Positions 1 through 57,931 are shown, numbered from the stretch's first letter. The stretch is DNA of 57,931 nucleotides from a virus (IMGVR_UViG_3300012667_000325:1-57931); one strand, 5' to 3'. Notes: a model not told the origin generated them from the letters alone. Program-made: numbers and translations.

Positions 1-55
1 AGTGAAGCATAATGACGACATACACCAACGTATTTGGTGGCGCTAACATCTACCC
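1..55. repeat. Terminal 55-bp exact direct repeat (copy 1); circular-assembly overlap
   Basis: Bases 1-55 are identical to 57877-57931. The ORF ending at 57888 overlaps the ATG that corresponds to position 12. Confidence 0.97.
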
Positions 56-1211
56 GAGTGAGATCAGCTACAGCGCGCTCACCCTGACGGCAGACGTTGT
101 GCTCAGCTGGCCAGAGGAAACGTCTACTAACACCAACCTCGCCACTCGCATCATCGACGTTACCGCCGCTGTAGCCGACTGGAGCATCTTCCTTCCTGAT
201 GCGCGCAAGGGCGGTGACGGTCAGACTATCTTGTTCACCAACTACGGTGCGACTCAAGTGCTGGTTAAGTCTGCTACCGGCGTTCAACTCGTTGCGATGG
301 CTGCCGGCACGAGCTGGCAAATCTACCTGACCAACAACACAACCGAGTCGGGTAGCTGGCGCGCGTTTCAGTACGGCGCGGCTACTTCTGCGGCTAACGC
401 CTCGGCCCTCGCAGGAACCGGCCTCATCGCTATCGGTTCTGTGTTGTCTCAAAACATGCCGGCCACCGACTTCAACAGCGACTACTCCGCCGGTGACACC
501 GATCGTTCTAGGTTCTTCGTGTGGGGTGGTGCGGGCGGTACGCTTGAGTTACCCTCACCTACACTGCTAGGTAACGGTTGGTTCATCAACCTGAGCAACC
601 AAGGCTCGGGTTCGCTCTCAGTCGACCCTGCCGGTTCGGTGACCATTGACGGCCTTTCCGCTAAGACCTACAATCCTGGCGAATCGTCCATGATTGTGAC
701 TGACGGCGTGAACTACTACTCAATCGGCTACGGTAAGGACGCTGTGTTCGCGTTCGACTACACCTCGATTGACGTGGCAGGTACGGGTGTTTACACCCTC
801 ACCGGCTCTGAGTTGAACCGCATCGCCTACAGCTTGACCGGCACACTCACAGGTAACCGACAAATAGTCGTACCTGCAACAGTGCAACAATACTGGATCA
901 CCAACTCCACAACAGGCGCTTACACGCTGACCGTCAAGACCTCTAGTGGCTCCGGCTACACTATTGATCAAGGTCAGAGCGCGATCTTGTATTGTAACGG
1001 TACAAACGTGGTTCCGGCTGACACTGCTGGCGTCTCTGTACCAATCAGTGTTGCTAACGGCGGAACCGGCGCAACCACGGCCTCGGGCGCTCGAATCAAC
1101 CTCGGTGCCACCTCCGTAGGTATCGCCCTGTTCACGGCGGCTGACACCGATTCAGTGTGGACTACGCTGGGTGTGGCACCAGCGGGTGTTGTTGACGGCG
1201 GGGTGTTCTAA
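12..1211 (+). CDS. Virion tail/structural protein
   Basis: 399 aa, rich in T/S/G and likely beta-rich. Has a C-terminal NGGTGATTASGAR fibre motif and lies between the tail adaptor and tail tube genes. Confidence 0.65.
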   Translation: MTTYTNVFGGANIYPSEISYSALTLTADVVLSWPEETSTNTNLATRIIDVTAAVADWSIFLPDARKGGDGQTILFTNYGATQVLVKSATGVQLVAMAAGTSWQIYLTNNTTESGSWRAFQYGAATSAANASALAGTGLIAIGSVLSQNMPATDFNSDYSAGDTDRSRFFVWGGAGGTLELPSPTLLGNGWFINLSNQGSGSLSVDPAGSVTIDGLSAKTYNPGESSMIVTDGVNYYSIGYGKDAVFAFDYTSIDVAGTGVYTLTGSELNRIAYSLTGTLTGNRQIVVPATVQQYWITNSTTGAYTLTVKTSSGSGYTIDQGQSAILYCNGTNVVPADTAGVSVPISVANGGTGATTASGARINLGATSVGIALFTAADTDSVWTTLGVAPAGVVDGGVF

Positions 1212-2756
1212 ATGCCCTCACCCACCACCATACTCCGTTCGCTTCCTGGTATCAAACGGGACGGCACTAAGTTCGAAGGCGACAACTACGTCGACGGCAG
1301 GTGGGTGCGTTTTCAGCGCGGGTTGCCCCGTAAGATGGGCGGCTATCGCTCGATTGTGAAAACCCTGAGCGAGATCTCTCGCGGGTTTACCAACTTCGTG
1401 CAGCAGACTCTGGTTTATTGTCATTCTGGTTCCGCCACGTTGTTACAGCGTTTCACACTTGACGCCAACAAAAACGCTTCAATCATCTCTGACCGCACCC
1501 CGTCAACATTGACGGATTCAGACCAGAACAAGTGGATGTTCGACTACATGTACGACTCATCCACAACTGACAACAACATCATTGCGCACGTTGCCCCTAA
1601 CGGCCAGTGTATCTGCAATGACCAAGGCGGGCAGATCTTTTACGGCCCCGTGACCGGAACCGGCGCGTTGACCGAGATCACCCTACCTGCGGGCGCTAAC
1701 GCCACGGGCGGTATTGTCGTGTTGCACCCGTACCTCGTGTACTACGGTACTGCTGGTATCGTGGGTTGGTCAATCCCAGGAGACCCTGCCGACTTGTCCG
1801 GCTCAGGCTCAGGCATTGCCCGCGCTTGGGGTCAGAAGATTGTAAAAGGTCTACCGCTCCGCGCCGGTTCAGGCTCGGCCCCCGCCGGTGTGTTGTGGGC
1901 TTATGACGCTGTCATCCGTATGACCTTCACCGGCGGCTCTACCGTGTTCGCCTTTGACACCATCGCCACTAACACCTCAATCATGTCCGCAGACGGCGTG
2001 ACCGATTACGACGGTGTGTTCTACTGGGCGGGTGTTGACCGCTTCCTCATGTTTAACGGCGTAGTGCGTGAGGTGCCTAACCAACTGAACCTGAACTGGT
2101 TCTTTGATGGTTTGAACGACCAACAGCGCAGTAAGGTTTACGCCTACAACACGCCGCGCTACGGTGAGATCTGGTGGGCTTACCCCCGTGGTGACGCTAC
2201 CGAGTGCACTCATGCGGTGGTCTACAACGTGCGTGAGAACACTTGGTACGACACCGTCTTGCCGTCTTCAGGTCGTGTTGCTGCTAGCTACTGTAACGCC
2301 TACGCCGCGCCTATCCTACCAGGAGACAGCGAACTCGGCACCGACTACAAGGTCTGGATCCATGAACAGGGTACGGATGAGATCGACGGGCAGAACCTGT
2401 TCCCGATTGAGTCTTACTTTGAGACCTGTGATTTGTCCTCAATGGCCGCCAAGGGGGTTAACTCCTACCTGCGCATTTCAGCTATCGAGCCCGACTTTGT
2501 GCAGTCCGGTGACATGACCGTTCAGGTTACGGGCCGCGCTAACGCTCGCGCTCCTGAGGTCTACAGCTCAGAGTTCACGATTCTAGACCCTAGCAACGTG
2601 ACTCATCCTTATGAACAAATCACCATGCTCAAAGAGCAACGCCGTGAGTTGCGTGTGAAGTTCAAGTCTTACTGCGTGGGTGGTGATTACCAGATGGGTC
2701 AAATCATTGGTCACATGGAAGATGGGGCCAAAACAGACAAGACGGTGCTCGGATGA
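1212..2756 (+). CDS. Tail tubular protein B / nozzle (P22 gp10-like stabilization protein)
   Basis: 514 aa with a PGIKRDGT...WVRFQRGLPRKMGG N-terminus and propeller-like repeats (EIWWAYP, VYNVRENTWY). Position fits a podovirus tail module. Confidence 0.7.
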   Translation: MPSPTTILRSLPGIKRDGTKFEGDNYVDGRWVRFQRGLPRKMGGYRSIVKTLSEISRGFTNFVQQTLVYCHSGSATLLQRFTLDANKNASIISDRTPSTLTDSDQNKWMFDYMYDSSTTDNNIIAHVAPNGQCICNDQGGQIFYGPVTGTGALTEITLPAGANATGGIVVLHPYLVYYGTAGIVGWSIPGDPADLSGSGSGIARAWGQKIVKGLPLRAGSGSAPAGVLWAYDAVIRMTFTGGSTVFAFDTIATNTSIMSADGVTDYDGVFYWAGVDRFLMFNGVVREVPNQLNLNWFFDGLNDQQRSKVYAYNTPRYGEIWWAYPRGDATECTHAVVYNVRENTWYDTVLPSSGRVAASYCNAYAAPILPGDSELGTDYKVWIHEQGTDEIDGQNLFPIESYFETCDLSSMAAKGVNSYLRISAIEPDFVQSGDMTVQVTGRANARAPEVYSSEFTILDPSNVTHPYEQITMLKEQRRELRVKFKSYCVGGDYQMGQIIGHMEDGAKTDKTVLG

Positions 2757-2980
2757 TCGTCACCCTGCCAACCAACCTCGAACTCACCGACTGGGCAAAT
2801 CAGGTCATTTTGGACCTCGACCCCTACGGCGCGTTCGGGCGGTTGCAGGACGAAGCCTACTGGCAAGACTGGGCCGTGCAGTTCCTCAACAATACGACAA
2901 TCGGGCGTAACCCGCCAATACCTTACGGGTATGACGACTGGCGTGAGTGGGCAGAGCGTTTCTGCCAGAGTTTGAGCTGA
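2753..2980 (+). CDS. Small Trp-rich hypothetical virion protein
   Basis: 75 aa with overlapping start/stop junctions on both sides. Confidence 0.65.
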   Translation: MIVTLPTNLELTDWANQVILDLDPYGAFGRLQDEAYWQDWAVQFLNNTTIGRNPPIPYGYDDWREWAERFCQSLS

Positions 2981-3420
2981 TGCGGTACATAGGTTTTGAG
3001 CGTGAAGTTGAGGCCGTGGAATGGGCCAAGAAGATCCTCGGTATCGAGGGTGTAACTGGGTTTGCGAGGGCGGTCTCGGCGGTTGATGAGAATGACAACT
3101 TTGTGTTTGTCATCGTGTTGTCAAACTTCAGTGCGCTGGGGGTGGACATGCACACCGCAGCTATTCCTGGAGCGAGCTGGGCTCGCCCTAGGGAGATAGT
3201 CAAGATGTTTAACGAACTGTTTGAATTTGTGTTTGAGCGGTTGAAGTTACAGCGAGTCACAGGGCTTGTGCGTTCAAAGAATACGGCTGCTCGCCGGTTC
3301 GATGAACACATCGGTTTCGAGCTCGAAGGGGTCATGCGCAGGGCATTCATTGATGATGACCTTTGCGTTTATGGGTTTTTAAGGGAAAATTTTGAGTCAC
3401 ACAAGTGGCGAAGGAAGTAA
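2980..3420 (+). CDS. GNAT-fold acetyltransferase-like virion assembly protein
   Basis: C-terminal RVTGLVRSKNTAARRFDEHIGFELEG is a RimJ/RimL-type GNAT motif. ATG 2980 overlaps the upstream TGA. Sits between tail tube and ejection genes. Confidence 0.7.
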   Translation: MRYIGFEREVEAVEWAKKILGIEGVTGFARAVSAVDENDNFVFVIVLSNFSALGVDMHTAAIPGASWARPREIVKMFNELFEFVFERLKLQRVTGLVRSKNTAARRFDEHIGFELEGVMRRAFIDDDLCVYGFLRENFESHKWRRK

Positions 3421-3422
3421 AG

Positions 3423-5270
3423 ATGGATCGTCAACAAATCATGCAAATCGCCAGCCAGAACCCTCAAGTTCAGCAGGCAGTCGAGATGGCCAAACAAGAG
3501 GTCGCTCAAATGGATCTCAACCCCCAGATGATTGATGAAATCATTCAGGTGCTTGAGCACGTGATGGATAGCCCTCAGGACTACCAAGCCGTTCGCGCAG
3601 CGGCTATCCGTGACGGATTTGTTGAAGAAGGCGACTTGCCTGCTGAGTTCGACCCCATCGTCATCGCTTCTTTGCTCATCGTATTCTACGGCTTGAAAGA
3701 CCAAGCCGGTCAACAGCAGCAAGCTATGTTTGCGCGTGGCGGTCTTGCTCAAATGGCCGCTCACGGTCGCGGCGGTGACACAATGTTGGCCCACATCAAC
3801 CCTATGGAAGCCGAAATGCTCCGTCGAATGGGTGGCTCGGGCACTATCAACCCTAACACCGGCCTGCGCGAGTTTAAGGGTGGTGGCTTGATGAAGATCG
3901 TCAAAACCGTAGCCCCTATCGCCCTCGCTATCGCTGCTCCTGGCCTCGGTATGGCGATGTCTGCCGCGCTCGGTGCCGGTATCGGCGCTCTGGGCGGCGG
4001 TGGTTTGAAAGGCGCGCTCATCGGCGGTACTTTAGGCGGCTTAGGCGCAGGCTTAGGCGGCGCTCTGGGTGGCACGGTTAGCAACGCGACCGGTATGGGT
4101 CTGGGCGCTACGGGTTCTAACATCCTAGGTAGCTCTTTGATCGGTGGCACCGTGGGTCAAGCTACGGGGCAGGGCTTCGGTAAAGGGGCGCTCATGGGTG
4201 CCGCAGGCGGCGCTGCTGGTAGCGCTATCGGCGGTATGGCCGGTACTGGTAGTAGCGCGCTCAACGCCGGTATCCGCGCAGGCGGTACAACCGCAGGTAA
4301 CCTGTTGACCGTCGGTGCTGACGCTAAGACGGCCCTCAAAGGTGGCGCTCTCGCAGGTTTGATGGCGGGTTCTTACCAAGGCTATCAAAACGCTACAAAA
4401 CCCTCTGCAACCGTGACTGACGGCTTGGGTTTGAAGCAACAACCTACTAACACCGGCGAGTTTGGTTCTAAGACCCAGCTCGACCCCAACAGTGTTTCCG
4501 AGGGCGGTTTAAACAAATACGACATCACCGGCAAACCTACATCTCTCAACCCTGACATGACGGTTGACTACAGCTTGAAGACGCAGCCGACTCCGAGCCC
4601 GTTAGAGGTTGCTGCCGCTAACAACATGGATCAGCTCTACACCCCACCGGCAGACTTGTCTACCAAGTTGGGTCTAGACACCACCAACGTCGGTATGAAC
4701 TCAGCCACCGGTTACGGCGGTCTGGCTCTGGCCGGTCTGGGCGCAGCGGCTATGCCTGCTGAAACCCCTGCCGAAGCTCAGAAAGCTATCGAGTCCATGA
4801 GCCCGTCTCAGAAGGAATACTTCAACCGTCCTACCGTTGTGTGGGACTGGGACAAGATGATGGCGGATGCCTCGTCTCAAGGTCAAGACCTAGGCACCTT
4901 CATGGCTAACAACTGGAGCGCGGTCTCTGGCGGTCAGTACAACAAGCAAATCGGCACTCAACAAGCCGAAGTGGCTGCTGCTCGCGGCGGCTACATCACC
5001 CATCGCGCTCGCGGCGGCGCTTTGAACGCCCTCGCCCACGGCGGCGGTTCAGGTCGCGCAGACACGATCCATGCTAAGTTGTCAGACGGCGAGTACGTCA
5101 TCGACGCTGAGACCGTAGCCCTGCTGGGTGACGGTTCTACAAAGGAAGGCGCTAAGCGTCTTGACGAAATGCGCAAGAAACTGCGTATGCAAAAAGGCAA
5201 AACACTCGCTAAAGGCGGTTTTAGCCCTGCGGCTAAGTCACCCTTGGCCTATCTGAAGGGAGCAGCATAA
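3423..5270 (+). CDS. Internal virion / DNA ejection protein, Gly-rich
   Basis: Contains a GRGGDTMLAHINP motif, long Gly/Ala hydrophobic stretches and a C-terminal GSGRADTIHAKLSDGEYVIDA module. Confidence 0.65.
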   Translation: MDRQQIMQIASQNPQVQQAVEMAKQEVAQMDLNPQMIDEIIQVLEHVMDSPQDYQAVRAAAIRDGFVEEGDLPAEFDPIVIASLLIVFYGLKDQAGQQQQAMFARGGLAQMAAHGRGGDTMLAHINPMEAEMLRRMGGSGTINPNTGLREFKGGGLMKIVKTVAPIALAIAAPGLGMAMSAALGAGIGALGGGGLKGALIGGTLGGLGAGLGGALGGTVSNATGMGLGATGSNILGSSLIGGTVGQATGQGFGKGALMGAAGGAAGSAIGGMAGTGSSALNAGIRAGGTTAGNLLTVGADAKTALKGGALAGLMAGSYQGYQNATKPSATVTDGLGLKQQPTNTGEFGSKTQLDPNSVSEGGLNKYDITGKPTSLNPDMTVDYSLKTQPTPSPLEVAAANNMDQLYTPPADLSTKLGLDTTNVGMNSATGYGGLALAGLGAAAMPAETPAEAQKAIESMSPSQKEYFNRPTVVWDWDKMMADASSQGQDLGTFMANNWSAVSGGQYNKQIGTQQAEVAAARGGYITHRARGGALNALAHGGGSGRADTIHAKLSDGEYVIDAETVALLGDGSTKEGAKRLDEMRKKLRMQKGKTLAKGGFSPAAKSPLAYLKGAA

Positions 5271-6154
5271 TGGCTGGTATTTTCACAGGCACCCCGCAGA
5301 CGGCAACGTCTTACACCACCTCATCCACCGAGACACCAAAGTGGATGCAGGATGCGATCTACACGCAGGTTCAACTTGCGTCTAACCTTGCTGCTCAACC
5401 TTACCAAGCCTACACCGGTAACTTAGTTGCCGGCCAGACCCCACAACAAAAGCAAGCCTATGACATGGTTAGCCAGAACGTGGGTAAGTGGGAGCAACCT
5501 TACCAGCAAGCCACCTCAGGTACTCAGGCTCTGACCACGGCCACCGCGCCTCAGAACATCGACGCCTACATGAACCCGTACACGGCTAACGTGACGGATA
5601 GAATCGCCCAGCTCGGCGCTCGCAACCTCAGCGAGAACCTGCTGCCAGGAGTCTCAGATGCGTTCATCAAAGCCGGTTCGTTCGGCGGCACACGTATGGG
5701 TGAGTTCGGTAGCCGCGCCCTGCGCGATACTCAAGAGTCTATCTTGGGTCAGCAGGGTCAAGCCTTGCAACAGGGCTACACACAGGCTCTGGGTGTGTCT
5801 CAGGCCGACTTGAACCGTCAACAGTCTGCGCTGCAACAGCTCGCCACCATGACCCAACAAGGTCAACAGATGCGTACAGCGGACACTGCAGCACTCGAGG
5901 CCGCCGGTGTTTCACAACAGCAACTGGCTCAAAAAGAGGCAGACGCCGCTTATCAACAGTACCAAAACGCACAACTCTACCCCCGTCAAATGGCGGACTG
6001 GTTGTCCACTCAGGTGCGCGGTATGGCCCCGATCACACCTACAACAACTACGAATGCGGGTTCAACTACGGGTGCGACTTACAGCGCGTCACCGTTGTCA
6101 CAACTCGCCTCGGCAGGTGCTACGGGTATGGGTATTTACAAACTGGCCCAGTAA
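5270..6154 (+). CDS. Internal virion / DNA transfer (pilot) protein
   Basis: 294 aa, Gln-rich and helical, with YMNPY and GSFGGTR motifs seen in podovirus ejection proteins. Confidence 0.65.
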   Translation: MAGIFTGTPQTATSYTTSSTETPKWMQDAIYTQVQLASNLAAQPYQAYTGNLVAGQTPQQKQAYDMVSQNVGKWEQPYQQATSGTQALTTATAPQNIDAYMNPYTANVTDRIAQLGARNLSENLLPGVSDAFIKAGSFGGTRMGEFGSRALRDTQESILGQQGQALQQGYTQALGVSQADLNRQQSALQQLATMTQQGQQMRTADTAALEAAGVSQQQLAQKEADAAYQQYQNAQLYPRQMADWLSTQVRGMAPITPTTTTNAGSTTGATYSASPLSQLASAGATGMGIYKLAQ

Positions 6155-6163
6155 GGAGTTACG

Positions 6164-7483
6164 ATGCCCGACGAATTTCAAGATTTAGCCAGTCAGTACG
6201 GTATCGGCGGGGTAGAAGAACTCCTCGCCAAATACTATCAAAACCCCGCTGTGCAAGTGGCGGGGCCGGTTGAGAGCATCCCACCTGCGAACACCGCACC
6301 CGCTGCTAGCCGTGTTGCTCCGGTTAAAGTAGACACTATTGACGGTGTTCAAGAGGTCGCACCCGCCCAACAGGGTTCGGTTCCTCCTCAGTTGCTTGAC
6401 ATGTTGAGCAAGTACACTTCCGGTGAGTCTGCTTACGGTGCTGAACTCAAGACCGCGCGCGGCAAGGCTAACGCCGAGACCGAAGCGTTCCAGAAGATGA
6501 TCCAAAGCTCAATCGACGGTTCACCCGCCGACAAAGCCGAGATGTATTTCCGCCTCGCAGCGGCTTTTGGCGCTCCCACTAAGACCGGCGGCTTTGCTGA
6601 GACGCTAGGTAAGGTCGGCGAGACCATGGGTGAGTACACTAAAGGTCAAAGCGCAACTAAGAAGCAACTCCAGCTCGAAGGCCAGAAGCTCAAGATGCAG
6701 GGCGCTAAGGAAGAACTCACCACACTGCGCACTCTTGCCGGCGAGGAGATGAAAGACAAGCGCGCTATCTCAGCCGAGTTGCTCAAAGACTACATCAAGT
6801 CCGGCCAGCCTCAGTCTACGGCGGGTAAACAGGCTCAGGACGAAGGCTTGAAGCCAGGATCACCCGAGTTCCAGAAACGTGTGGCTCAGATCGCCGATAT
6901 GAACGTCGAGAAGCAGATGGCGACCATCAACTCTACGCTCGCAAACATGTCAGTGGCTCAGGCTAACTTAGCCTTGCAGCAACAAAAGTTTGACGAATCT
7001 AAGAAACAAGCTGCTAAACTCAGCCCTGTTGAAGTCAAGCTCAAAACCGAAACCGAAGACATGTTGGCGCAAACTGAGCAGGCGATGTCTAACTTGAAGA
7101 AGGCCTACAAGCTCAACCCCAACACGTTTGACGCTTCGCTGCCTGACATCGCACAACGCAAAGTGCTTGAGGCCGCCGGTTCTAAAGACCCCAAAGTCAT
7201 CAACACTCGTGAGTTGGAAAACACGCTTGAAAAAGCGGCGCTGTCTTCGCTCAAGTCTACGTTCCCAGGAGCTATCTCCAACGACGAACGCAAGGCGTTG
7301 CAAGACGTGCAGGGTTTGGGTGCGAAGAGCATCGAAGAGCGCGGTCGCATCATGAAGAGCGGTTACGCCGCGCTCAAGGCTGTGTCAGAGCGTAGCCGTA
7401 AGCGCCTGAACGAGATCAACCAAGGTCTCTACCGTGATACTTCTCCGTCATCAGCGGAAGATCTTGACGAAGGGAAAAAGTAA
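6164..7483 (+). CDS. Internal virion / ejection protein (coiled-coil)
   Basis: 439 aa, helical, with a TAAGGAG RBS; lies in the ejection-protein cluster. Confidence 0.55.
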   Translation: MPDEFQDLASQYGIGGVEELLAKYYQNPAVQVAGPVESIPPANTAPAASRVAPVKVDTIDGVQEVAPAQQGSVPPQLLDMLSKYTSGESAYGAELKTARGKANAETEAFQKMIQSSIDGSPADKAEMYFRLAAAFGAPTKTGGFAETLGKVGETMGEYTKGQSATKKQLQLEGQKLKMQGAKEELTTLRTLAGEEMKDKRAISAELLKDYIKSGQPQSTAGKQAQDEGLKPGSPEFQKRVAQIADMNVEKQMATINSTLANMSVAQANLALQQQKFDESKKQAAKLSPVEVKLKTETEDMLAQTEQAMSNLKKAYKLNPNTFDASLPDIAQRKVLEAAGSKDPKVINTRELENTLEKAALSSLKSTFPGAISNDERKALQDVQGLGAKSIEERGRIMKSGYAALKAVSERSRKRLNEINQGLYRDTSPSSAEDLDEGKK

Positions 7484-9411: not shown

Positions 9412-9431
9412 CCCCTACACTTTTGCAGGTG

Positions 9432-9627
9432 TCATTTTACAGCCCCGCCTTGTGCGGGGTTTTCTTTTTCCATCATCACACGGTTGCGTAGCCGTAGGAT
9501 GATGCGGATGTGCTCGGCGGCCTTGGGTTGGTTTTCCCGTTCGGCCTGAGCAATAGCGGCCTGTAGCTCCTCCTGAGTCTTACCCCAGTGGAGCCCTGAG
9601 CCTAACAGACGGCGTATGTAACCCCAT
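9432..9627 (-). CDS. Hypothetical protein
   Basis: Short ORF at the end of the leftward arm; start uncertain. Confidence 0.45.
9442..9469 (+). terminator. Rho-independent terminator of the late operon
   Basis: GCCCCGC-CTTGT-GCGGGGT hairpin followed by TTTCTTTTT, where the two transcription arms converge. Confidence 0.75.
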
Positions 9628-9631
9628 GGCA

Positions 9632-10054
9632 TTAGAGCTTGCCGGTGAGGGCTTCGCGCCAGCCTTGGTTCACCGCCTCGGCGCTGAGTCGCAGGTTGAG
9701 GTCAACAATCGCGTCAAGCGCCTTGTCAAGCGAGACCAGATTGTCACGGTCAAACGAGTCAGATTTGACCATCTGCTCGCAGGCCGAAGCCCCGCCTCGA
9801 GCTATGCGCGTCAGCAGGTGATCCTTACCCACCTTGCGGTCTAGCTCGGCTGCTCGGATCATAGCCGAAAGGGTCAGGCCGATACCCGCGCAAAAGTCAG
9901 CGCAGGGTTCGCCGTCTTCAGTCAGGTAGAGCTTGATCTTCTGGTCAACTATGTCAGAGCGCAAGCCTTTCTGTGCGAAGGCGCGCGCTACGGGGTTCTT
10001 AGCAGTTTGCATGCTAACTCGACGAGGTTGTGCTACTCCCATGCCGTTCACCAC
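9632..10054 (-). CDS. Hypothetical protein
   Basis: About 140 aa ORF in the leftward operon; start uncertain. Confidence 0.6.
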   Translation of the reverse strand: MVNGMGVAQPRRVSMQTAKNPVARAFAQKGLRSDIVDQKIKLYLTEDGEPCADFCAGIGLTLSAMIRAAELDRKVGKDHLLTRIARGGASACEQMVKSDSFDRDNLVSLDKALDAIVDLNLRLSAEAVNQGWREALTGKL

Positions 10055-10290: not shown

Positions 10291-10407
10291 GATGATTCTC
10301 CTGTTTGTAGGCTTCAATTGCTTTGAGCGCATATTCGCGCATGTGTTTCTGGGTGTACCCCCGTGAGTCCAACAAGGTCACACGGTTGGGCAGGTGAGGT
10401 AGCTTGA

Positions 10408-44475: not shown

Positions 44476-44479
44476 CCTT

Positions 44480-44565: not shown

Positions 44566-44573
44566 AACAAACA

Positions 44574-45475: not shown

Positions 45476-45486
45476 GGAGCACCAAC

Positions 45487-45861: not shown

Positions 45862-45943
45862 TTCACGCTTCTTGAACTAAAATTTTTGTCATTGTAGGGC
45901 GCGCTGTACCGGCGGCCATCTGACCACCCCTCTCGGAGTTAGT

Positions 45944-47229: not shown

Positions 47230-47234
47230 GCAGT

Positions 47235-49817: not shown

Positions 49818-50152
49818 TGCTGGAAGAATTCATCAAACGTCAATTCAAGGTGCGTGACGCAGCCCAGCGCGCGCACTGGACAACTGACTCAGGGTTTCAA
49901 CACGAAACGCTGTGTGGGTTTTATGAGGGAATCGCGAGTCAGACGGACACCTTCGTAGAGGCGTATGTGGCCGCGACACGTGAAAAGCCAGAGTCCACAG
50001 AGGCGATCGCTGAGAAGATTCGCAGTGAAATGATGTGGCTCGCCAAGAACCGCGAAGAGCTAGCAAAGCAAATTCCAGCGTTGGAGAATATAATTGACGA
50101 AGTCTCTAAGTTATACCTTGACACGCTGTTTAAACTTGAGAACCTGAGGTAA
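49817..50152 (+). CDS. Ferritin/Dps-like four-helix protein (DUF5856-like)
   Basis: AHWTT...QHETL..FYE...DTFVEAY...LENIIDE...LFKL. Confidence 0.65.
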   Translation: MLEEFIKRQFKVRDAAQRAHWTTDSGFQHETLCGFYEGIASQTDTFVEAYVAATREKPESTEAIAEKIRSEMMWLAKNREELAKQIPALENIIDEVSKLYLDTLFKLENLR

Positions 50153-50158
50153 AAACAC

Positions 50159-50779
50159 ATGCCACAAACCGGCTACACACCCATTCAGACGTACCACTCG
50201 TCCACAGCAGGAAACACGCCCTCGGCGGGCAACCTCGTGAACGGCGAGTTGGCGGTCAACATCGCAGACGAAAAGCTGTTCATCAAGAACGCCAGCGGCA
50301 CTGTTAAGGTCATTGCTGCGAGTAACTTCGTCGACCAAACCGGCTCGGCAGTGTGGTTGACCTCGGTTAGCGGTACAAACACTATCACTGCTACCGCTAC
50401 TCCTACGTTCGCTGCTTACATCACCGGTATGAGTTTCCGCTTTGTGGCGGCGAACTCAAACACCGGCCCTGTGACGATTAACATCGGCGGCCTCGGCGCT
50501 AAGGCTATCACCAAGAACGGCGCTGAGGCGTTGGGCGCGGATGACATCCTCGCAGGTGCAGCGGTCACAATCATCTACGACGGCACTGAGTTTCAGCTGT
50601 CTGCCGGAGCTGGCGCAGGTAACAGCGGCGCTAACGGTGCGATGATCGTCAACAAGACCACGGTCACTGCTGACTACACCCTGCCCAGCGGTAGTAACGC
50701 GATCTCGGTCGGCCCTGTGACCATTGACAGCGGCGCTGCGGTGACCGTGTCTAGCGGTCAGCGTTGGTTGATTCTCTAA
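50159..50779 (+). CDS. Tail fibre-associated protein
   Basis: GELAVNIADEKLFIK, NTGPVTINIGGLGAKAI and SVGPVTI motifs. Confidence 0.7.
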   Translation: MPQTGYTPIQTYHSSTAGNTPSAGNLVNGELAVNIADEKLFIKNASGTVKVIAASNFVDQTGSAVWLTSVSGTNTITATATPTFAAYITGMSFRFVAANSNTGPVTINIGGLGAKAITKNGAEALGADDILAGAAVTIIYDGTEFQLSAGAGAGNSGANGAMIVNKTTVTADYTLPSGSNAISVGPVTIDSGAAVTVSSGQRWLIL

Positions 50780-50788
50780 GGAAAGAAC

Positions 50789-51865
50789 ATGACATACGGA
50801 ACATTAAACGTAGACAGCGTTGTCAACTCTGACGGCGTAACGTCAGGGGGCTTGTACGGCTTCAAGAACCGCATCATCAATGGTGCGATGGTGATTGACC
50901 AGCGTAATGCGGGGGCTACACTGAGCCTCGCTTCTACAGTTACCGCCTTGTACGCCACTGATCGTTTTTACGCATACCAAGACAAGTCAGGCGTAACAGG
51001 CACTGTTGGTCAGTCTACTGACGCGCCAGCAGGATTTAAAAACTCTTATGCTGTGACTATCACAACAGGTTCGGCATCGGCTTCAGGTGACCAAAGTTTT
51101 ATTCAGCAAGGTATTGAAGGCTTAAATGTCGCAGACTTGGGTTTTGGAACGGCTAGTGCACAAGCTGTCACAGTCTCGTTTTGGGTGAAGTCCAGCATTA
51201 CCGGCACGAACGGTTTTAGTATCAGCAACAGCGCCGGTAACCGTTGGTATGTTGGCTCTTACACCATCAACGCTGCAAATACTTGGGAATACAAAACAAC
51301 CACAATTCCGGGCGACACAAGCGGGACTTGGCTGACCACAAACGGCATGGGTATTCGCTTGCGTTTCAACATCGGCAGTGGCTCAAGTTTCTTGGGCGCT
51401 GCTGGCTCGTGGGGCTCCTCAATCTACAACGGCCCAACAGGTTCGTTTTCTACTACTGGAACTTCCGGCGCAACTCTGTACATCACAGGCGTTCAACTAG
51501 AAAAAGGCAGCACAGCCACATCGTTTGACTACCGCCCGTATGGTACTGAGTTGGTGCTGTGTCAGCGGTATTACCAGATTTGCAAGACGGCTTTTGGCGC
51601 TGGTAACTCAGCAACAGCAGTTGCTCTTTCTCTTGCTTTCCGTGTGGATATGAGAGCAGCTCCTACTGTTGGAGAGCAAGGAGCTATGTATGTTTCCGAT
51701 GGTTTTGTTGATTCGTTACAAAGTTCCGCAAGCCTTACTGGATTAGTTGGGAGCACTGACTCTTACATCCTTTTGCTAAACAACTTTACTGGTTTGACGA
51801 CCAGTCGTGTGTACTTTGTTCGTCTTAACAACAACAACGGATTCACACTTTCTGCGGAGCTATAA
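50789..51865 (+). CDS. Tail fibre / receptor-binding protein with carbohydrate-binding-like domain
   Basis: KNRIINGAMVIDQR...GVQLEKGSTATSFDYRPYGTEL.LCQRYY module. Confidence 0.78.
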   Translation: MTYGTLNVDSVVNSDGVTSGGLYGFKNRIINGAMVIDQRNAGATLSLASTVTALYATDRFYAYQDKSGVTGTVGQSTDAPAGFKNSYAVTITTGSASASGDQSFIQQGIEGLNVADLGFGTASAQAVTVSFWVKSSITGTNGFSISNSAGNRWYVGSYTINAANTWEYKTTTIPGDTSGTWLTTNGMGIRLRFNIGSGSSFLGAAGSWGSSIYNGPTGSFSTTGTSGATLYITGVQLEKGSTATSFDYRPYGTELVLCQRYYQICKTAFGAGNSATAVALSLAFRVDMRAAPTVGEQGAMYVSDGFVDSLQSSASLTGLVGSTDSYILLLNNFTGLTTSRVYFVRLNNNNGFTLSAEL

Positions 51866-52030
51866 ATGTACAAATTATGTAAAAGCAATGGGGTTGTGGT
51901 TTCAGTGAGACGCCTGTCAGATGGCGCTTGCATCCCCTTCGACCCTGCCAATACAGACTACCAAGCCTATTTGAAATGGCTGGCCGAGGGCAACACGCCT
52001 GAACCAGCAGATGAACAAGGAGCCGAATAA
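51866..52030 (+). CDS. Small tail-fibre assembly protein (not in ORF track)
   Basis: 54 aa containing [27 protein letters not shown]. Confidence 0.7.
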
Positions 52031-52932
52031 TGGCATCAACGATTAATGGAACAAGCACTGGCAACGGTGGCCTCATCACCACTGGTGACGACTCTGGCGT
52101 ATTGCAACTGCAAACTAACGAGACTACAGCGGTCACTATTGATGCGAGTCAGAACGTAGGTGTTGGCACAGCTTCGCCCTCTGCAAAACTTGATGTGCGC
52201 GGGATTGCGCGTGTCAATGAGGACAACGCTGGAACAAAGGTAATTCAACTTCGCAGCGATTGGGCTGGTGTTGGTCCAGCAGTTCAAGTTGCAACTAATG
52301 ACCCGCTTCTGTTTGTTAGTAACGGTTCTGAACGCGCCCGTATTGACACTAGCGGTAACTTGTTGGTGGGGACTACAAGTACATCTAACGCAAGCGTTAT
52401 TCAAACAGCAACAACCAACGCTTATAGTTTACAAGCGATAAACACAGCTGCATCAAACCCATACGGTATCAATTCTAAATATAGCGGCGCAGCACCTAAC
52501 AGCGGTGGTTTTGAGTTTTTGATGTGCCAAGATACTTCGTCGGCAAGAATGTATGTTCGCTCAAACGGCGGTATCAGCAATTTCTCGGCAAACAACACCA
52601 ACTTGTCTGATCGCAGGGAGAAGATGAACTTTGCCCCAGCCAAGTCATACCTTGATGTGATCTGCGCCATTCCTGTGCAGACGTACAACTACATCGACCA
52701 GAATCTTGAGGAAGATGATGGTTTGACATTGGGTGTTGTTGCTCAGGATGTGCAAGCTGTCGCACCAGAGTTGGTGACTGAATCTGATTGGTCAGCGGAA
52801 AAAGACGGCTCAAAGATGCGTCTGTCTATCTACCAAACAGATATGCAGTATGCCTTGATGAAGTGCATCCAAGAACAACAAGCCCTAATCACAACACTCA
52901 CTGAGCGCATCACCGCGCTGGAGGCTAAATAA
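52030..52932 (+). CDS. Tail fibre with C-terminal intramolecular chaperone (peptidase S74)
   Basis: ERARIDTSGNLLVG, SDRREK cleavage motif, GVVAQDV and a terminal coiled coil. Confidence 0.85.
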   Translation: MASTINGTSTGNGGLITTGDDSGVLQLQTNETTAVTIDASQNVGVGTASPSAKLDVRGIARVNEDNAGTKVIQLRSDWAGVGPAVQVATNDPLLFVSNGSERARIDTSGNLLVGTTSTSNASVIQTATTNAYSLQAINTAASNPYGINSKYSGAAPNSGGFEFLMCQDTSSARMYVRSNGGISNFSANNTNLSDRREKMNFAPAKSYLDVICAIPVQTYNYIDQNLEEDDGLTLGVVAQDVQAVAPELVTESDWSAEKDGSKMRLSIYQTDMQYALMKCIQEQQALITTLTERITALEAK

Positions 52933-54155
52933 TGACAGTCGTAATTAACGGTACAACGGGGATTACCAACCCCAACAGCGTGACCATCGGTAGCGGTGGC
53001 AGCAACGTGGCGACTAACCTTGCGATGGGCTATAACACCCTATCGGCAAACACATCTGGTAGCGACAACGTGGCCGTTGGTAGCGGGAGTTCTGGTGTCT
53101 ATCCAGCAGCTATGCAAAACAACACCACAGGCTCTCGTCAAACGGTTGTCGGTAATGCTGCTTTAGCTGCAAACACAACAGGAACGCAGAACACAGCAAT
53201 TGGTTACGGGTCGATGTATTCAAATACGACTGGCAACTACAACGTGGCTCTTGGTTTGCAAAGTCTTTTCTCCAACACCACAGCCTCTAACAACACTGCT
53301 GTGGGTTATCAGGCTGGCTACAACAACACTACAGGAACTCAAAACGTATTCCAAGGCAGTTATTCTGGCTACAACAACACCACTGGCAGCTACAACACAT
53401 CGTTGGGTTACAACGCTTATGCCGTAAGCGGAACTGCTGCGACAGGCAACAACAACACTGCTGTGGGTCACACTGCGCTTAACCAAAATACCACAGGAGG
53501 AAACAACGTAGCTGTGGGTTTTTACGCTCTTGCCACTAGCACAACGGGAACAGAAAACATAGCTGTTGGCGCAACTGCGCTTAATAACCTTACCACTGGT
53601 GCCAACAATATTGCTATTGGCTATAACGCTGGTACTTACGTAACGGCATTGACGACTGGTGGTTCCAATATTTTAATTGGCAACTACAGCAAGACTAGCT
53701 CCGCATCTGGAGCAAATCAAATTGTCATGGGCTATGACGCTACTGGAAAAGGCGACAATACTTTTTACCAAAGCAGAGGCAGTTCTTACAACGGCGGAAA
53801 CACAAGCACTTGGAACACTACATCTGACCGCCGCTTGAAAAAGAACATCGTTGACAACAATGAAGGTTTGAGCAAGTTAGTTGGGGTACAAATCCGCAAC
53901 TTTGAGTATCGCCTGAAAGAGGAAATCACAGAAATTGATTCTTCAAACGTGATTGAGAAAGAAGGCGTACAGCTTGGTGTAATTGCTCAAGAACTCCAAC
54001 AGGTTTTGCCTGAGTGCGTAAAAGAGCAAAGCACTGGTGTTTTGTCTGTTGATTCTGACAATTTGCAGTGGTACTTGATTAACGCAATCAAAGAACTCAA
54101 CGCAAAAGTAGACGCACAAGCTGCTGAAATCGCAGCACTGAAAGGACAAGTATGA
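52932..54155 (+). CDS. Tail fibre/spike with NTAVG beta-roll repeats and peptidase S74 chaperone
   Basis: ~14-aa repeats (NTTG..NTA.G..AL), SDRRLK and GVIAQE. Confidence 0.85.
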   Translation: MTVVINGTTGITNPNSVTIGSGGSNVATNLAMGYNTLSANTSGSDNVAVGSGSSGVYPAAMQNNTTGSRQTVVGNAALAANTTGTQNTAIGYGSMYSNTTGNYNVALGLQSLFSNTTASNNTAVGYQAGYNNTTGTQNVFQGSYSGYNNTTGSYNTSLGYNAYAVSGTAATGNNNTAVGHTALNQNTTGGNNVAVGFYALATSTTGTENIAVGATALNNLTTGANNIAIGYNAGTYVTALTTGGSNILIGNYSKTSSASGANQIVMGYDATGKGDNTFYQSRGSSYNGGNTSTWNTTSDRRLKKNIVDNNEGLSKLVGVQIRNFEYRLKEEITEIDSSNVIEKEGVQLGVIAQELQQVLPECVKEQSTGVLSVDSDNLQWYLINAIKELNAKVDAQAAEIAALKGQV

Positions 54156-54355
54156 ACGAACTGAAAACAATCTCAATCGACGGCGTGGAGCATGACTTCA
54201 CCGCATTCACCAACGAGCAAAAAGCCTACGTTGCGCAGATTAACGATTTGAACTCCAAGCTCGGCGGCCTGCAGATGCAAGCCGACCAGTTCTCCGTCGC
54301 ACGTGACGCTTTTGTCGGCATGTTGAAACAATCCTTAGTCAAAACGGGTGAGTAA
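54152..54355 (+). CDS. Small coiled-coil protein
   Basis: 67 aa starting with ISIDGVEH; follows the fibre genes. Confidence 0.6.
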   Translation: MNELKTISIDGVEHDFTAFTNEQKAYVAQINDLNSKLGGLQMQADQFSVARDAFVGMLKQSLVKTGE

Positions 54356-54558
54356 TGGACACGATCTCAGTAACAGCGGCCCGCTTGGATACTCATGAAG
54401 CAGTGTGTGCTCAACGCTATGAGACGATCACAGACCGGCTTGAAAAGGGCGCGGAGCGTATGGACAAGATGCAATACCTGATTTACGCAGTTCTTGCGGC
54501 TGTCCTGCTCGGGCCTGGAGCTGCGGCTGAGTTCTTCAAGAAGCTGATCGGCCTCTAA
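54355..54558 (+). CDS. Small membrane protein (holin/antiholin-like)
   Basis: HEAVCAQRY coiled coil plus a C-terminal transmembrane segment; start of the lysis block. Confidence 0.55.
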   Translation: MDTISVTAARLDTHEAVCAQRYETITDRLEKGAERMDKMQYLIYAVLAAVLLGPGAAAEFFKKLIGL

Positions 54559-54560
54559 AT

Positions 54561-55340
54561 GTGGATCCGATCAGTCTTCTCCTCATGGCCCAGAGTGCGG
54601 TCGGCGCTATCCGCGCTGGCTGCCAGATGCTATCCGAGGGGAAGGCTGAAATCGGCAAGTTTAAAAAGCAAGTCGAAGGCGGGCTCGCAGACGCCAAAGC
54701 GATCTACAAAGAAGTCACTGGCCTCTGGGGATGGGTCACGGGTTTATTCGGAGCGCCTAAAAAACCTGCTGCGAGTGTTGTCGTTCAGCCCGCCCAACCC
54801 GCCGCCGAAGCCCCTAAGCCGAAAGCCAAAAAGCAAGCCGAACCCGAGCTGAGTTTTGAGGAGTTTCAGGCGCGAGCGGTGCACGAGATTTGTGAGAATT
54901 TGAAGGTCTATTTTGAGGCCATGCGACACTTGAAAGAACATTGTCGGGAACTTGAGGAAGAGGCTCTGGTCACAGAGAAAGTTGCCGACAGTGCTATTGA
55001 CCGTATCGAGATCCAGTGGCAGATGCAACAGCTGTCTGCGCAACTGAAGCAAGCCATGATTTATGGTACGCCGAGGGAGCTGGGTCTAGGTGCGATGTAC
55101 GAGGACTTCCTTGAGAAGTATGACGAAATTGTTGAGGCGCAAGAGGTTGCTCGAGCCGTAAAAGCTAGAAACGAAAGAGACAAAGCGTGGCAACGAGACC
55201 TCCTCAAGCATCACAGAATAGACAGGGCGCTAACGGGGGTGGCGGTGCTGGTAATGGTCGCGTGGATGTGGGGCATAGTGCTATCGCTCGCATGGCTCGT
55301 GAAGACACCCAGTGGTTTATTGTCGCCGTTGTTATCCTGA
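54561..55340 (+). CDS. Membrane-anchored coiled-coil protein
   Basis: MDPISLL N-terminus and a C-terminal transmembrane segment. Confidence 0.6.
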   Translation: MDPISLLLMAQSAVGAIRAGCQMLSEGKAEIGKFKKQVEGGLADAKAIYKEVTGLWGWVTGLFGAPKKPAASVVVQPAQPAAEAPKPKAKKQAEPELSFEEFQARAVHEICENLKVYFEAMRHLKEHCRELEEEALVTEKVADSAIDRIEIQWQMQQLSAQLKQAMIYGTPRELGLGAMYEDFLEKYDEIVEAQEVARAVKARNERDKAWQRDLLKHHRIDRALTGVAVLVMVAWMWGIVLSLAWLVKTPSGLLSPLLS

Positions 55341-55474
55341 GTCTGGTGTTGTTTTTAGCCCTGCCAATGTCCCTGCTAGTGTTAGTAGAGACCGAGAAGA
55401 TGAAGGCTGAAATCCGTAAGGAGACCCGCGAACTGCGCAGGCTCAAAGAGGAAGTGAAGGAAAAACTGAAATGA
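55187..55474 (+). CDS. Membrane protein (transmembrane segment plus coiled coil)
   Basis: WFIVAVVILSLVLFLALPMSLLVLV; start uncertain. Confidence 0.5.
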   Translation: MATRPPQASQNRQGANGGGGAGNGRVDVGHSAIARMAREDTQWFIVAVVILSLVLFLALPMSLLVLVETEKMKAEIRKETRELRRLKEEVKEKLK

Positions 55475-55689
55475 GATGGTTGATCATATTTGCGGCGTTG
55501 TTAGCCTTTGCACTCGCAGGATGTGAGGAGCGGTTCCGCTATCACTGCCAAGACCCCGCAAACTGGGCTCAGAAGCGTTGCCAACGCCCTGACTGCCAGT
55601 TCACCCAAGACTGCCCCGATTACCTTGTAGCCCCCGTACTGGAGAAGAAAATTGAAGTACCAACACCCGCAGCGTCTGCTGACCGCTGA
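55471..55689 (+). CDS. Cys-rich lipoprotein (possible o-spanin)
   Basis: LAFALAGC lipobox and RYHCQDPANW...C..P.C....C. Confidence 0.6.
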   Translation: MRWLIIFAALLAFALAGCEERFRYHCQDPANWAQKRCQRPDCQFTQDCPDYLVAPVLEKKIEVPTPAASADR

Positions 55690-56155
55690 AGAGTTTGAAG
55701 TCCGTATTTGGGGCTTTGTAGTCGTCATAGTTACGTTGATACTCGCCGGCATCGTAGGCTTTATGCTTTACAGCTTGGCCTACGTTACGCAGCCGTTGAA
55801 GTCTATGGCGCCGATGGATCAAGCCTTCGCCAAGATGCTCAACGACATCGTGCTGCTCGTGGTGGGTGGCATCGGTGGTGTGATGAGCCGTAAAGGTGTT
55901 CAGGCTGCCGCCGAGAAGATGGCCGCCTCACAGGTGACCCCACCCCCACAGCCCCAAGCCGTAGCGCCAAGTGTTAGCCCCGCGCCTACGGCTCAGTCGG
56001 GCATGTTTGACTTTAACTTCGGCGGATTCAAGAACCCTGAGTTAGACGAAGAGTGGCGCGCACCCCCGCCACCTACTACTCCTGCCGATTACGTCGACCC
56101 TGCCAAAGAGGAGATCGCCCATGAACGAGCAGCCGCTAAACTGGAGCAACCCTGA
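55652..56155 (+). CDS. Two-transmembrane protein (holin candidate)
   Basis: Two hydrophobic helices and a Pro-rich tail; in the lysis block. Confidence 0.55.
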   Translation: MKYQHPQRLLTAEEFEVRIWGFVVVIVTLILAGIVGFMLYSLAYVTQPLKSMAPMDQAFAKMLNDIVLLVVGGIGGVMSRKGVQAAAEKMAASQVTPPPQPQAVAPSVSPAPTAQSGMFDFNFGGFKNPELDEEWRAPPPPTTPADYVDPAKEEIAHERAAAKLEQP

Positions 56156-56580
56156 TGCTACCCAACCCTTGGATGCTGCTCGGCGCTATCGCTGTCGCTT
56201 TAACTGTGTATTTAACCGGCCACCATGTGGGTTATGCGCTGAAGGAGCAAGAGGATGCGATGCTGATCGCGCAGAAGAACCGAGAGATGCAGACTCAGAA
56301 GGATGAACAAGATGCAAAAGACGCCGTCGTTAAGCAAGATTTTGAAACTAAGCTGTCTAGCGTTATTGCTAGCCGCCCAAGGCTGTACGTCCCCCTCTCC
56401 GCCTCGAGTGGATGTGCCTCCGCTGCCGGCAACAATGGTCAAGCGCGAGCCGAACTTGACGGACAGACTGTTGAAGACCTTATCCGGCTCGTCGCCGAAG
56501 GTGACCGAGCAATCATCGAACTCAACTCCTGCATCGACCGGTACAACCAAGTAAAGGAGACCCTGAGTGGTAACCGCTGA
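56155..56580 (+). CDS. Rz-like i-spanin
   Basis: N-terminal transmembrane segment, coiled coil, RLYVP and EGDRAIIELNSCIDRY. Confidence 0.72.
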   Translation: MLPNPWMLLGAIAVALTVYLTGHHVGYALKEQEDAMLIAQKNREMQTQKDEQDAKDAVVKQDFETKLSSVIASRPRLYVPLSASSGCASAAGNNGQARAELDGQTVEDLIRLVAEGDRAIIELNSCIDRYNQVKETLSGNR

Positions 56581-57175: not shown

Positions 57176-57255
57176 AATTTGCCTCTATTCATGTTTTACA
57201 CCTATAATTTCCACCAGCGTTGGCTGAATCAGCTACTTACAATCTTGGAGTACCG

Positions 57256-57888
57256 ATGAGCTACGTAATGACATATTCATCGCTGCTAGAAGACGTTCGC
57301 CGTTACCTTGAGCGCGGGTTCACCGCCGAGAGCGACCAAATCGTCTACGAGCAGCTTCCGCGCCTAGTTACCCTAGGTGAGCGGCGCATCGCACGTGAGT
57401 TGAAGATTACGGGCTTCATCACGGCGGTGACCACACCCCTGCAAGTCGGCGTTGCCGTGTACATGAAGCCTGACCGCTGGCGTGACACGGTGAGTATGTC
57501 GGTTAACAACCAGCCCATTTTCGCCCGCTCTTACGAGTACTGCCGTTCCTACTGGCCTGATGAGTCTTCCACCGGCACTCCTCAGTTCTACGCCGATTAC
57601 GACTACCAACATTGGCTATTCACCCCTACTCCGGACGCTACCAGTACGCTTGAAATTGTGTACTACGAGCAGCCGCCGTTCTTGGGTGAAGAGTTCCAAA
57701 CTAACTGGCTCACCGAGTACGCACCTGATGTGCTGTTGTACGCAACGCTGCTCGAAGCCACCCCGTTCCTCAAGAACGATGAACGCATCCAGACTTGGCA
57801 AATGATGTACGACCGCGCCGCGCAAGCGTTGAACGGTGAAGACCTCAAACGCATCTTGGATCGCACAGCCCAACGGAGTGAAGCATAA
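57256..57888 (+). CDS. Tail tubular protein A / adaptor-like protein
   Basis: MTYSSL..., GTPQFYA, PTPD and NWLTEYAPDVLLYATLLEA motifs. GGAG RBS before ATG 57256; runs into the gene at position 12 across the join. Confidence 0.72.
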   Translation: MSYVMTYSSLLEDVRRYLERGFTAESDQIVYEQLPRLVTLGERRIARELKITGFITAVTTPLQVGVAVYMKPDRWRDTVSMSVNNQPIFARSYEYCRSYWPDESSTGTPQFYADYDYQHWLFTPTPDATSTLEIVYYEQPPFLGEEFQTNWLTEYAPDVLLYATLLEATPFLKNDERIQTWQMMYDRAAQALNGEDLKRILDRTAQRSEA

Positions 57889-57931
57889 TGACGACATACA
57901 CCAACGTATTTGGTGGCGCTAACATCTACCC
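57877..57931. repeat. Terminal 55-bp exact direct repeat (copy 2)
   Basis: Identical to bases 1-55. Confidence 0.97.

Follow-up and report, generated by a model that had tools for sequence, protein, structure and literature searches.

Avoidance of restriction sites and hypermodification of DNA are each well known in phages and are usually treated as alternatives. The virus record IMGVR_UViG_3300012667_000325 raises the question of whether one genome can combine them and, if so, how the restriction sites are divided between the two. We analysed this complete record, a stretch of 57,931 bp with 55% G+C, to which we refer as the window. By homology it holds a real cluster of genes for 5-hydroxymethyldeoxyuridine (5-hmdU), as a preliminary description of the sequence had claimed, with a thymidylate-synthase-like gene and matches to PF18723, a domain of the 5-hmdU DNA kinase (HMUDK), and PF18724, the amino acid:DNA transferase (aaDT). 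We call these the hmdU genes. The window is also almost devoid of the word CCSGG (S, C or G). We consider it probable that two complementary anti-restriction layers are at work, in which a site is kept if it has a modifiable T and is otherwise purged, so that the two defences would partition the set of sites at base-pair resolution.

CCSGG occurs once in the 57,931 bp. By contrast, 109.6 ± 10.9 sites are expected from 100 dinucleotide shuffles, 78 from a maximal-order Markov model and 69.1 ± 7.2 from 1000 synonymous-codon shuffles, in which synonymous codons are permuted within each gene and the proteins and codon usage are kept. The lowest of the synonymous shuffles contained 47 sites, and none of the 1000 came down to the single site observed. 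Its component words are frequent, with 217 CCGG sites and with 236 CCC and 214 CCG among the Pro codons. Restriction-type site avoidance in the window is thus strongly supported. The preliminary description had proposed that CCSGG is avoided, had found the only site at about 51308 in a divergent tail-fibre block and had remarked that CCGG, CCC and CCG are common elsewhere, all of which the counts bear out.

It had also held that CCWGG (W, A or T) is used freely, and here the counts say otherwise. There are 40 CCWGG sites in the window against 120.7 expected from the dinucleotide shuffle, 123 from the Markov model and 134.9 from the synonymous shuffle, and CCNGG as a whole stands at 41 against 203.9 (1000 synonymous shuffles). 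The CCWGG sites are distributed 38/1/1 over the codon phases. Under the synonymous shuffle, CCWGG is observed/expected at 38/18.9 in frame and at 2/118.0 out of frame, and the corresponding values for CCSGG are 1/20.1 and 0/47.7 (pairs of counts for single motifs are given below in the same observed/expected form). TGG following an NCC codon, expected 22.7 times, does not occur. Because out-of-frame CCWGG (2/118.0) and CCSGG (0/47.7) are both missing, the avoided word is CCNGG, and W is the remainder where avoidance is impossible; that 38 of the 40 CCWGG sites coincide with Pro-Gly follows from the protein forcing some CCNGG at these pairs.

Among known enzymes, ScrFI, SsoII and Ecl18kI recognise CCNGG, NciI and BcnI recognise CCSGG and PspGI recognises CCWGG, so the purged word in the window matches established restriction sites. 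An enzyme of the NciI/BcnI type, specific for CCSGG only, does not agree with the out-of-frame CCWGG count. Equal purging of W and S centres wherever coding allows fits a CCNGG enzyme of the ScrFI/SsoII type, and the counts would look no different if one enzyme cut CCSGG and another CCWGG; in either case the enzymes are read here from the counts. Of the candidates named in the preliminary description, a CCNGG enzyme of which CCSGG is the S half agrees better with the counts than an NciI/BcnI-type enzyme alone, since CCWGG is avoided too. The purge likewise extends to both centres in four relatives with hmdU genes (G001, G002, G004 and G018) and in the Acinetobacter phage SH-Ab 15599.

At the 39 Pro-Gly pairs of the window, Pro is written CCT 18 times, CCA 20 times, CCG once (the site at 51308) and never CCC, whereas the 801 Pro codons elsewhere include 236 CCC and 213 CCG. 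The earlier claim that Pro-Gly uses CCT or CCA therefore holds for 38 of 39 pairs. Moreover, 69.4 of each dipeptide would be expected given the frequencies of the amino acids, and Pro-Gly (39) and Gly-Pro (35) reach about half of that number; Pro-Gly in G003, a relative that tolerates CCSGG, stands at 67 against 77 expected. The shortage of Pro-Gly may reflect restriction avoidance acting on the protein sequence.

The CCWGG sites that survive are not a random sample with respect to their flanks. With every site oriented as CCTGG, we find 1/77.5 for VCCTGGB (neither a T before nor an A after), 5/28.3 for VCCTGGA, 24/22.2 for TCCTGGB and 10/8.0 for TCCTGGA. Unflanked CCWGG is purged as fully as CCSGG, and TCCTGG is undepleted. 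The same rule applies in G001, G002, G004 and G018, and G003 shows it in the unflanked class (4/64). It is absent from Pkon1 and ZS04, two CCWGG-avoiding phages without hmdU genes, and also from hmdU-bearing Sonora, in all of which every flank class is depleted alike. The forced Pro-Gly pairs show the bias at codon level: a T precedes Pro in 25/39 pairs against 12% elsewhere (p 1.5e-13), and the Gly codon is GGA in 24/39 pairs, compared with 7% elsewhere (p 1.2e-17). This bias (T before, GGA after) is repeated in hmdU-bearing G001, G002, G004, G018 and G024 and is absent from hmdU-lacking G009, fEV-1, G005, CRP-902 and MW202675. For the flanks of Gly-Pro the results were mixed overall.

Flanking T effects extend to some unrelated motifs. 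GCCGGC with a T on its 5' side or an A on its 3' side is found 15 times in the window where 13 are expected, and without such a flank 0 times where 17 are expected. GAATTC gives 4/7 when flanked and 0/6 when unflanked. In G002, G003, G004, G018 and G020 together, GGCC is at 115/327 flanked versus 3/231 unflanked.

As a separate observation, rescue by a T flank is categorical in several cases among Pseudomonas phage M6, Bordetella phage LK3, Rhizobium phage RHph_TM26 and Delftia phage phiW-14, all of other families: in phiW-14 for GGGCCC (23/24 flanked, 0/18 unflanked) and GCCGGC (23/34 and 1/49), in RHph_TM26 for GANTC (24/45 and 0/89) and in LK3 for GCCGGC (12/23 and 0/49).

CCNGG is one of several words missing from the window. 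By synonymous shuffle, GGWCC (9/84; expectation 83.9), GGCGCC (1/28), CGGCCG (0/23), CCGCGG (0/20), AACGTT (0/20), AAGCTT (0/15), AGCGCT (3/25) and ATCGAT (2/13) are all strongly depleted, and weaker depletion affects GGTACC (6/27), GAGCTC (5/20) and GCCGGC (15/30). The shortage is a property of palindromes: z falls below −3 for 32.5% of the 40 palindromic 6-mers with an expectation of at least 10, against 5.8% of 1910 non-palindromic 6-mers. The preliminary description had suggested a check of whether depleted motifs are mainly free of A/T. They are not, since of the nine purged palindromes four lack T and five have it (AACGTT, AAGCTT, AGCGCT, GGWCC and ATCGAT), and pooled 6-mer palindrome depletion is alike over the A/T classes (0.52, 0.65, 0.59 and 0.69), which rules out that only T-free sites are purged. 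None of the 26 TG-bearing palindromes is purged in the window.

In all, 37 phage genomes were compared, 24 with hmdU genes (14 + 10) and 13 without. The first group consists of 14 genomes with the window's hmdU gene module; the window's capsid gene is found at 89–99% in 10 of them and at 79–80% in G021 and G023, and neither TerL nor capsid is matched in G022 and G024. The second comprises 10 hmdU-bearing phages of other families, with aaDT over the cut-off in M6, LK3, Sonora, Ab18, RHph_TM26 and phiW-14, a weak aaDT match in SH-Ab 15599 and an HMUDK-like tblastn match only in LuckyBarnes, Pikmin and Juanyo. Two members of the window's structural family, G005 and G009, and 11 GenBank TerL relatives served as hmdU-lacking controls; for CRP-902 the analysis covered bases 1–50,000 of 51,954. 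Four records (G007, G008, G010 and G011), fragments of unclear status or duplicate lineages, were left out of the group statistics. Palindromes (4-mers, NNW/SNN 5-mers and 6-mers) were classed by thymine context and scored as purged at an observed/expected ratio of at most 0.2 with an expectation of at least 10.

T-free palindromes were purged more often in hmdU-bearing phages, with 57/182 cases (31%) in the first group, 35/151 (23%) in the other hmdU-bearing phages and 27/165 (16%) in the controls. For palindromes with T but neither TG nor TC the groups were alike, with fractions of 28/449 (6.2%), 32/255 (12.5%) and 25/345 (7.2%), and for those with TC only they were 17/230, 32/186 and 32/201. 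The TG-bearing class behaved differently, with 1/349 and 6/242 purged in the two hmdU-bearing groups, or 7/591 together, against 28/295 in the controls. The difference between the other hmdU-bearing phages and controls is significant by Fisher's test (0.001) and by a per-genome Mann-Whitney test (0.022; 1.2e-4 for all hmdU-bearing versus hmdU-lacking phages), and it persists under the Markov null, where 0/351, 1/231 and 29/312 TG-bearing palindromes are purged in the three groups, respectively. Individual motifs give the same picture: CTGCAG is purged in 0/14 of the first genomes versus 8/12 controls, CAGCTG in 0/14 versus 6/12 and TGGCCA in 0/13 versus 4/11. We also considered that TG and TC might be shielded alike, which is ruled out by TC-only palindromes being purged at 17% in the other hmdU-bearing phages and 16% in controls.

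The effect of a 5' T was also pooled over depleted motifs. For those that start with G, observed/expected with a 5' T versus other bases is 0.40 versus ~0.24 in the window's group, 0.54 versus ~0.22 in other hmdU-bearing phages and 0.37 versus ~0.30 in controls; for those that start with C it is 0.38 versus 0.24, 0.35 versus 0.29 and 0.34 versus 0.31, the effects in controls being weak. The two-layer idea of the preliminary description thus finds partial support in a sharpened form: sites with a modifiable T (TG, or T just 5') are spared.

Phage genomes have long been examined for avoidance of palindromic restriction sites, reportedly by Sharp in 1986 and by Rocha et al. in 2001. The window resembles these classical cases in its strong, lineage-specific shortage of palindromes, achieved mostly through synonymous codon choice. 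It differs from them in that thymine context shapes which words are avoided, with no TG-bearing palindrome purged and some partly avoided sites persisting only when flanked by T, in that both centre and flanks are chosen at forced Pro-Gly pairs, and in that the Pro-Gly dipeptide itself is reduced to about half of expectation.

For phages whose DNA chemistry is described, published work points mainly to TG as the context of the modification. SH-Ab 15599 has a kinase-type 5-hmdU pathway in which modified T occurs for the most part at TG, to a lesser degree at TC and only rarely at TT or TA, and its DNA resists 14 of 15 enzymes with TG sites, including BstNI (CCWGG) and PstI (CTGCAG) (PMC13458397). 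In our counts six words are purged from its genome, CCSGG (2/28) among them and none with TG, much as in the window. The two share no TerL or capsid match, and the chemistry and in-vitro resistance shown for SH-Ab 15599 stand beside a window known from its sequence. DNA of Pseudomonas phage M6, Salmonella phage ViI and Delftia phage phiW-14 is reported to resist 48–71% of more than 200 type II enzymes, the resistant sites sharing TG/TC; the M6 kinase modifies TG, and a flanking TG as in tGCCGGC was suggested as protecting GC-only sites (PMC6449724). Phosphorylation by the M6 kinase is also described as protecting DNA from NcoI (PMC8989533). EcoRII and BstNI are CCWGG enzymes named in this literature. 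Like these phages, the window has the HMUDK and aaDT pair (the M6 pair was checked), and its 15 GCCGGC sites match the tGCCGGC pattern. As differences, its HMUDK is only ~31% identical, M6-like phages heavily purge TC-only palindromes (8/18 and 10/19), and in the phages grouped with the window sites that start with C are likewise rescued by a 5' T (0.38 versus ~0.24). A non-exhaustive literature search found no published link between the context of T-hypermodification and site avoidance; the kind of phenomenon is known, and complementarity of the two defences at base-pair level appears new in the literature searched.

The counts, codon phases and flanks are direct observations, as is the difference that separates hmdU-bearing from hmdU-lacking phages, and from here on DNA modification, its context and host restriction enzymes as the selective agent are inferred. 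In the first layer, to judge from the genes and the published relatives, 5-hmdU would replace T and part of it would be hypermodified through the DNA kinase and aaDT, probably where T precedes G or C. In the second, which can be read directly in the sequence, restriction-type palindromes that a modified T does not cover have been removed by selection on synonymous sites and partly on amino-acid pairs. The hosts would carry a CCNGG activity (ScrFI/SsoII-like), or CCSGG and CCWGG activities, plus about nine others. Modified T would block cleavage where enough of it lies in or next to a site, and selection would therefore have struck only those sites that lie beyond such cover. CCSGG, without a T, is eliminated along with almost every avoidable CCNGG, and the 39 forced Pro-Gly pairs are mostly written T-CCT-GG or CC-A-GGA, that is, as TCCTGG, which would place two modifiable Ts on one strand. 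A further claim, on which we are evenly divided, is that avoidance footprints report the sites covered by hypermodification, such that its context could be predicted from the genome alone (for the window phage, a T that precedes C or G, which would protect TCCTGG and TGCCGGC) and that the two layers have co-evolved down to synonymous positions and Pro-Gly frequency.

Several observations weigh against the two-layer reading. In the window itself, rescue by flanks is absent for GGCGCC (1/13 flanked, 0/15 unflanked), GGWCC (6/43 and 3/43), GAGCTC (0/8 and 5/13) and GGTACC (1/12 and 5/15); the central TG alone does not save CCWGG, which stands at 1/77.5 without a flanking T; and TC-bearing sites are purged, as GGWCC and ATCGAT show (9/84 and 2/13). 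Flank effects are also seen in some phages without hmdU genes, with GGCC in G005 at 47/95 flanked versus 5/62 unflanked and a T before Gly at Gly-Pro in G005 (22/25) and Yersinia phage fEV-1 (7/9), and hmdU-bearing G024 has the Pro-Gly flank bias though its out-of-frame CCWGG is undepleted (91/62); the simple model accounts for neither fEV-1 nor G024. Among hmdU-bearing phages, G003 does not avoid CCSGG, G019 purges nothing, and the TC-bearing words GAGCTC and TTCGAA are purged in 5/10 and 6/12 testable relatives, respectively. The comparison also has limits of design: the TG class was defined with the first 14 genomes already in view and was suggested by the TG/TC rule in PMC6449724, so that the second set of 10 is the only replicate; the 14 genomes share one hmdU module and include three close pairs at 81–84% average nucleotide identity; the controls are not host-matched to the hmdU-bearing phages; and among the controls G005 and G009 are represented by incomplete records (84% and 61%).

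A rival reading is plain avoidance of many sites, set by the restriction-modification repertoire of the hosts and with no role for T modification. On this view the hosts would possess an enzyme that acts strongly on CCSGG, one with a weaker effect on CCWGG or CCNGG and others directed at about nine further palindromes, and W at Pro-Gly would be the lesser evil. The presence of T in 5/9 purged palindromes and the like depletion of 6-mer palindromes in all A/T classes speak for such an account, and T-flank effects in some hmdU-lacking phages agree with it. So does the variation among near HMUDK-bearing genomes, in which CCSGG is at 1/69 in the window (G000), 0/72 in G001, 4/60 in G002, 124/102 in G003 and 0/23 in G004, the last four being complete relatives. 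Over the wider set, CCSGG is purged in the window, G001, G002, G004, G018 and G024 and not in G003, G016, G017, G019 or G021–G023. The avoided set shifts with lineage, as host-driven pressure predicts, and because of the 124/102 in G003 the hmdU cluster by itself does not entail CCSGG avoidance. Certain aaDT-bearing loci show full purging of GGWCC (L097 0/14, L116 0/15 and L117 0/14), of CCWGG (L162 and L168, 0/11 each) or of ACGT (L167, 0/16), again as plain avoidance would have it. However, this account leaves unexplained the contrast in TG palindromes (7/591 versus 28/295, and likewise under the second null), the survival of CCWGG only as TCCTGG, the T flank at all 15 GCCGGC sites and the drive towards T/A flanks at forced CCWGG, which is confined to hmdU-bearing avoiders. 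We therefore regard it as unlikely, though the most serious competitor of the two-layer reading.

G005 illustrates how the avoided set can differ between phages that share structural genes. In this record (L093–L095, 45,448 bases) the structural genes are shared with the window (capsid 93%), all early-module genes of the window including the hmdU genes are missing, and the early module is short and different, with YqaJ and DUF1376. It purges ACGT (0/123), CCWGG (0/70), GCWGC (0/125) and GGWCC (0/47) and writes Pro-Gly as CCS-GGN in 22/22 pairs.

A site-specific nuclease encoded by the phage (for example against host DNA) or a methyltransferase, whose sites its own genome lacks or tolerates, could also yield lineage-specific patterns. 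It might reside among the many ORFs (open reading frames) without an assigned function, since 21 of the 40 ORFs scanned had no Pfam match and about 43 small ORFs fell outside the scan. Among the 40 ORFs scanned, of ~83, there was no methyltransferase or restriction-nuclease domain; the only nuclease-type matches were a weak YqaJ-like one and a Holliday-junction resolvase. At least 10 palindromes that are not related to one another are purged, more than a single enzyme would account for, and rescue by a flanking T is seen for motifs as different as CCWGG and GCCGGC (window) and GGCC (relatives). Such an enzyme is a very improbable cause. A cause unrelated to restriction, such as mutational bias, codon-pair or dipeptide preference, DNA structure or an assembly artefact, could draw on the scarcity of Pro-Gly and Gly-Pro and on the depletion of Shine-Dalgarno-like GGAGG, which indicates that other constraints exist, but it is highly unlikely given that CCSGG remains at 1 versus 69 under a null that keeps proteins and codon usage, that depletion is concentrated in palindromes, that the missing word differs among close relatives and that control phages show no preference for GGA after Pro.

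If the two-layer reading is true, a genome sequence would serve as a predictor both of the modification context and of the enzymes a modified phage still fears, and would offer a route to the restriction-modification specificities of the hosts of uncultured phages. It would also mean that defence pressure reaches protein sequence, with fewer Pro-Gly pairs. These points bear on the choice of enzymes for cloning such phages and on host-range prediction for therapeutic phages.

Greedy ORF calling gives ~83 ORFs with 96% coverage of the window, which encodes TerL, a primase-helicase, a helicase and a DNA polymerase. The hmdU genes lie in a leftward cluster that comprises an HD nucleotidase-like gene, a thymidylate-synthase-fold enzyme, the helical domain of HMUDK, a P-loop kinase ORF and aaDT (Table 1). 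The thymidylate-synthase fold is present according to the profile matches, and a role as hydroxymethylase rather than methylase is that of a candidate.

Table 1. Coordinates of genes, motif sites and other features in the window.
Feature	Position	Strand	Evidence or remark
Surviving GCCGGC sites (15)	303..56430	.	each with T 5' or A 3' (TGCCGGC on one strand); flank listing
CCWGG sites (40)	675..54518	.	38 are in-frame Pro-Gly pairs; 34 carry TCCTGG on one strand
HD-domain 5'-deoxynucleotidase-like gene	16962..17468	-	adjoins modification genes; PF12917 YfbR-like, E 2.5e-12
Thymidylate-synthase-fold enzyme, candidate dUMP hydroxymethylase	17560..18555	-	PF00303, 87 bits; phrog_5131, E 2.9e-104
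5-hmdU DNA kinase (HMUDK), helical domain	18556..19473	-	PF18723, 130 bits (cut-off 25)
P-loop kinase ORF	19470..20051	-	overlaps helical-domain ORF; PF18748 HMUDK_HMUD1, E 3.2e-5, 24 bits, under cut-off 27
Amino acid:DNA transferase (aaDT)	20576..21574	-	PF18724, 66 bits (cut-off 26.2)
Conserved cluster neighbour	22188..23150	-	phrog_3650, E 7.4e-83; no Pfam match; 68–88% identity in G001–G004 and G010
783-aa protein with PcfJ-like domain	35695..38046		between terL and portal gene; 29–43% identity in relatives
Divergent tail-fibre block with lone CCSGG	50789..54155	+	G+C at third codon positions (GC3) 0.46–0.48 versus ~0.6–0.7 elsewhere; no homologue in five relatives (G001–G005)
Only CCSGG (CCGGG)	51308..51312	+	in-frame Pro-Gly CCG GGC with T directly 5' (ttCCGGGc); in ORF 50789–51865, low GC3, no homologue in G001–G005
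Two consecutive tail-fibre ORFs	52030..52932 and 52932..54155		each ends in a Peptidase_S74 intramolecular chaperone domain

Owing to its low GC3 and the lack of a homologue in five relatives, the tail-fibre block looks like an exchanged receptor-binding cassette. It is too short for a test of purging, with 1.4 CCSGG expected and CCWGG at 0 versus 3.2 expected. Pooled rare sites are not enriched in the block, as they might be in a recent unpurged import (3/49 lie there; p 0.55).

With respect to relatives, megablast of 12 kb of the window returned no near-identical GenBank phage. The top TerL matches are the Roseobacter phages CRP-902 and CRP-901 at 45–47% identity, and IMG/VR contains many relatives of the window phage. 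No tRNA genes were found in the window. We also sought the host through TerL relatives in bacterial assemblies and obtained three bins of metagenome-assembled genomes only, whose labels (Caulobacter, Methylomonas and Leptolyngbyaceae) disagree and were taken as binning noise.

A further relative, G006, was dropped as a control without hmdU genes, as it carries another putative modification module. This module (L179–L180, ~21000–25400) comprises a dATP/dGTP diphosphohydrolase N-domain (dGTP_diPhyd_N), a short thymidylate-synthase-like ORF and a PALP enzyme, and almost no palindrome is purged in G006, only ATTAAT (0/10). Finally, some words of the window deviate from expectation in their own right. 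GGAGG/CCTCC is depleted (31 versus 118), probably through avoidance of internal Shine-Dalgarno-like words, TCGA is found 146 times against 267 expected, and CCTAGG (12 versus 4.3) and CTNAG (291 versus 209.5) are enriched.

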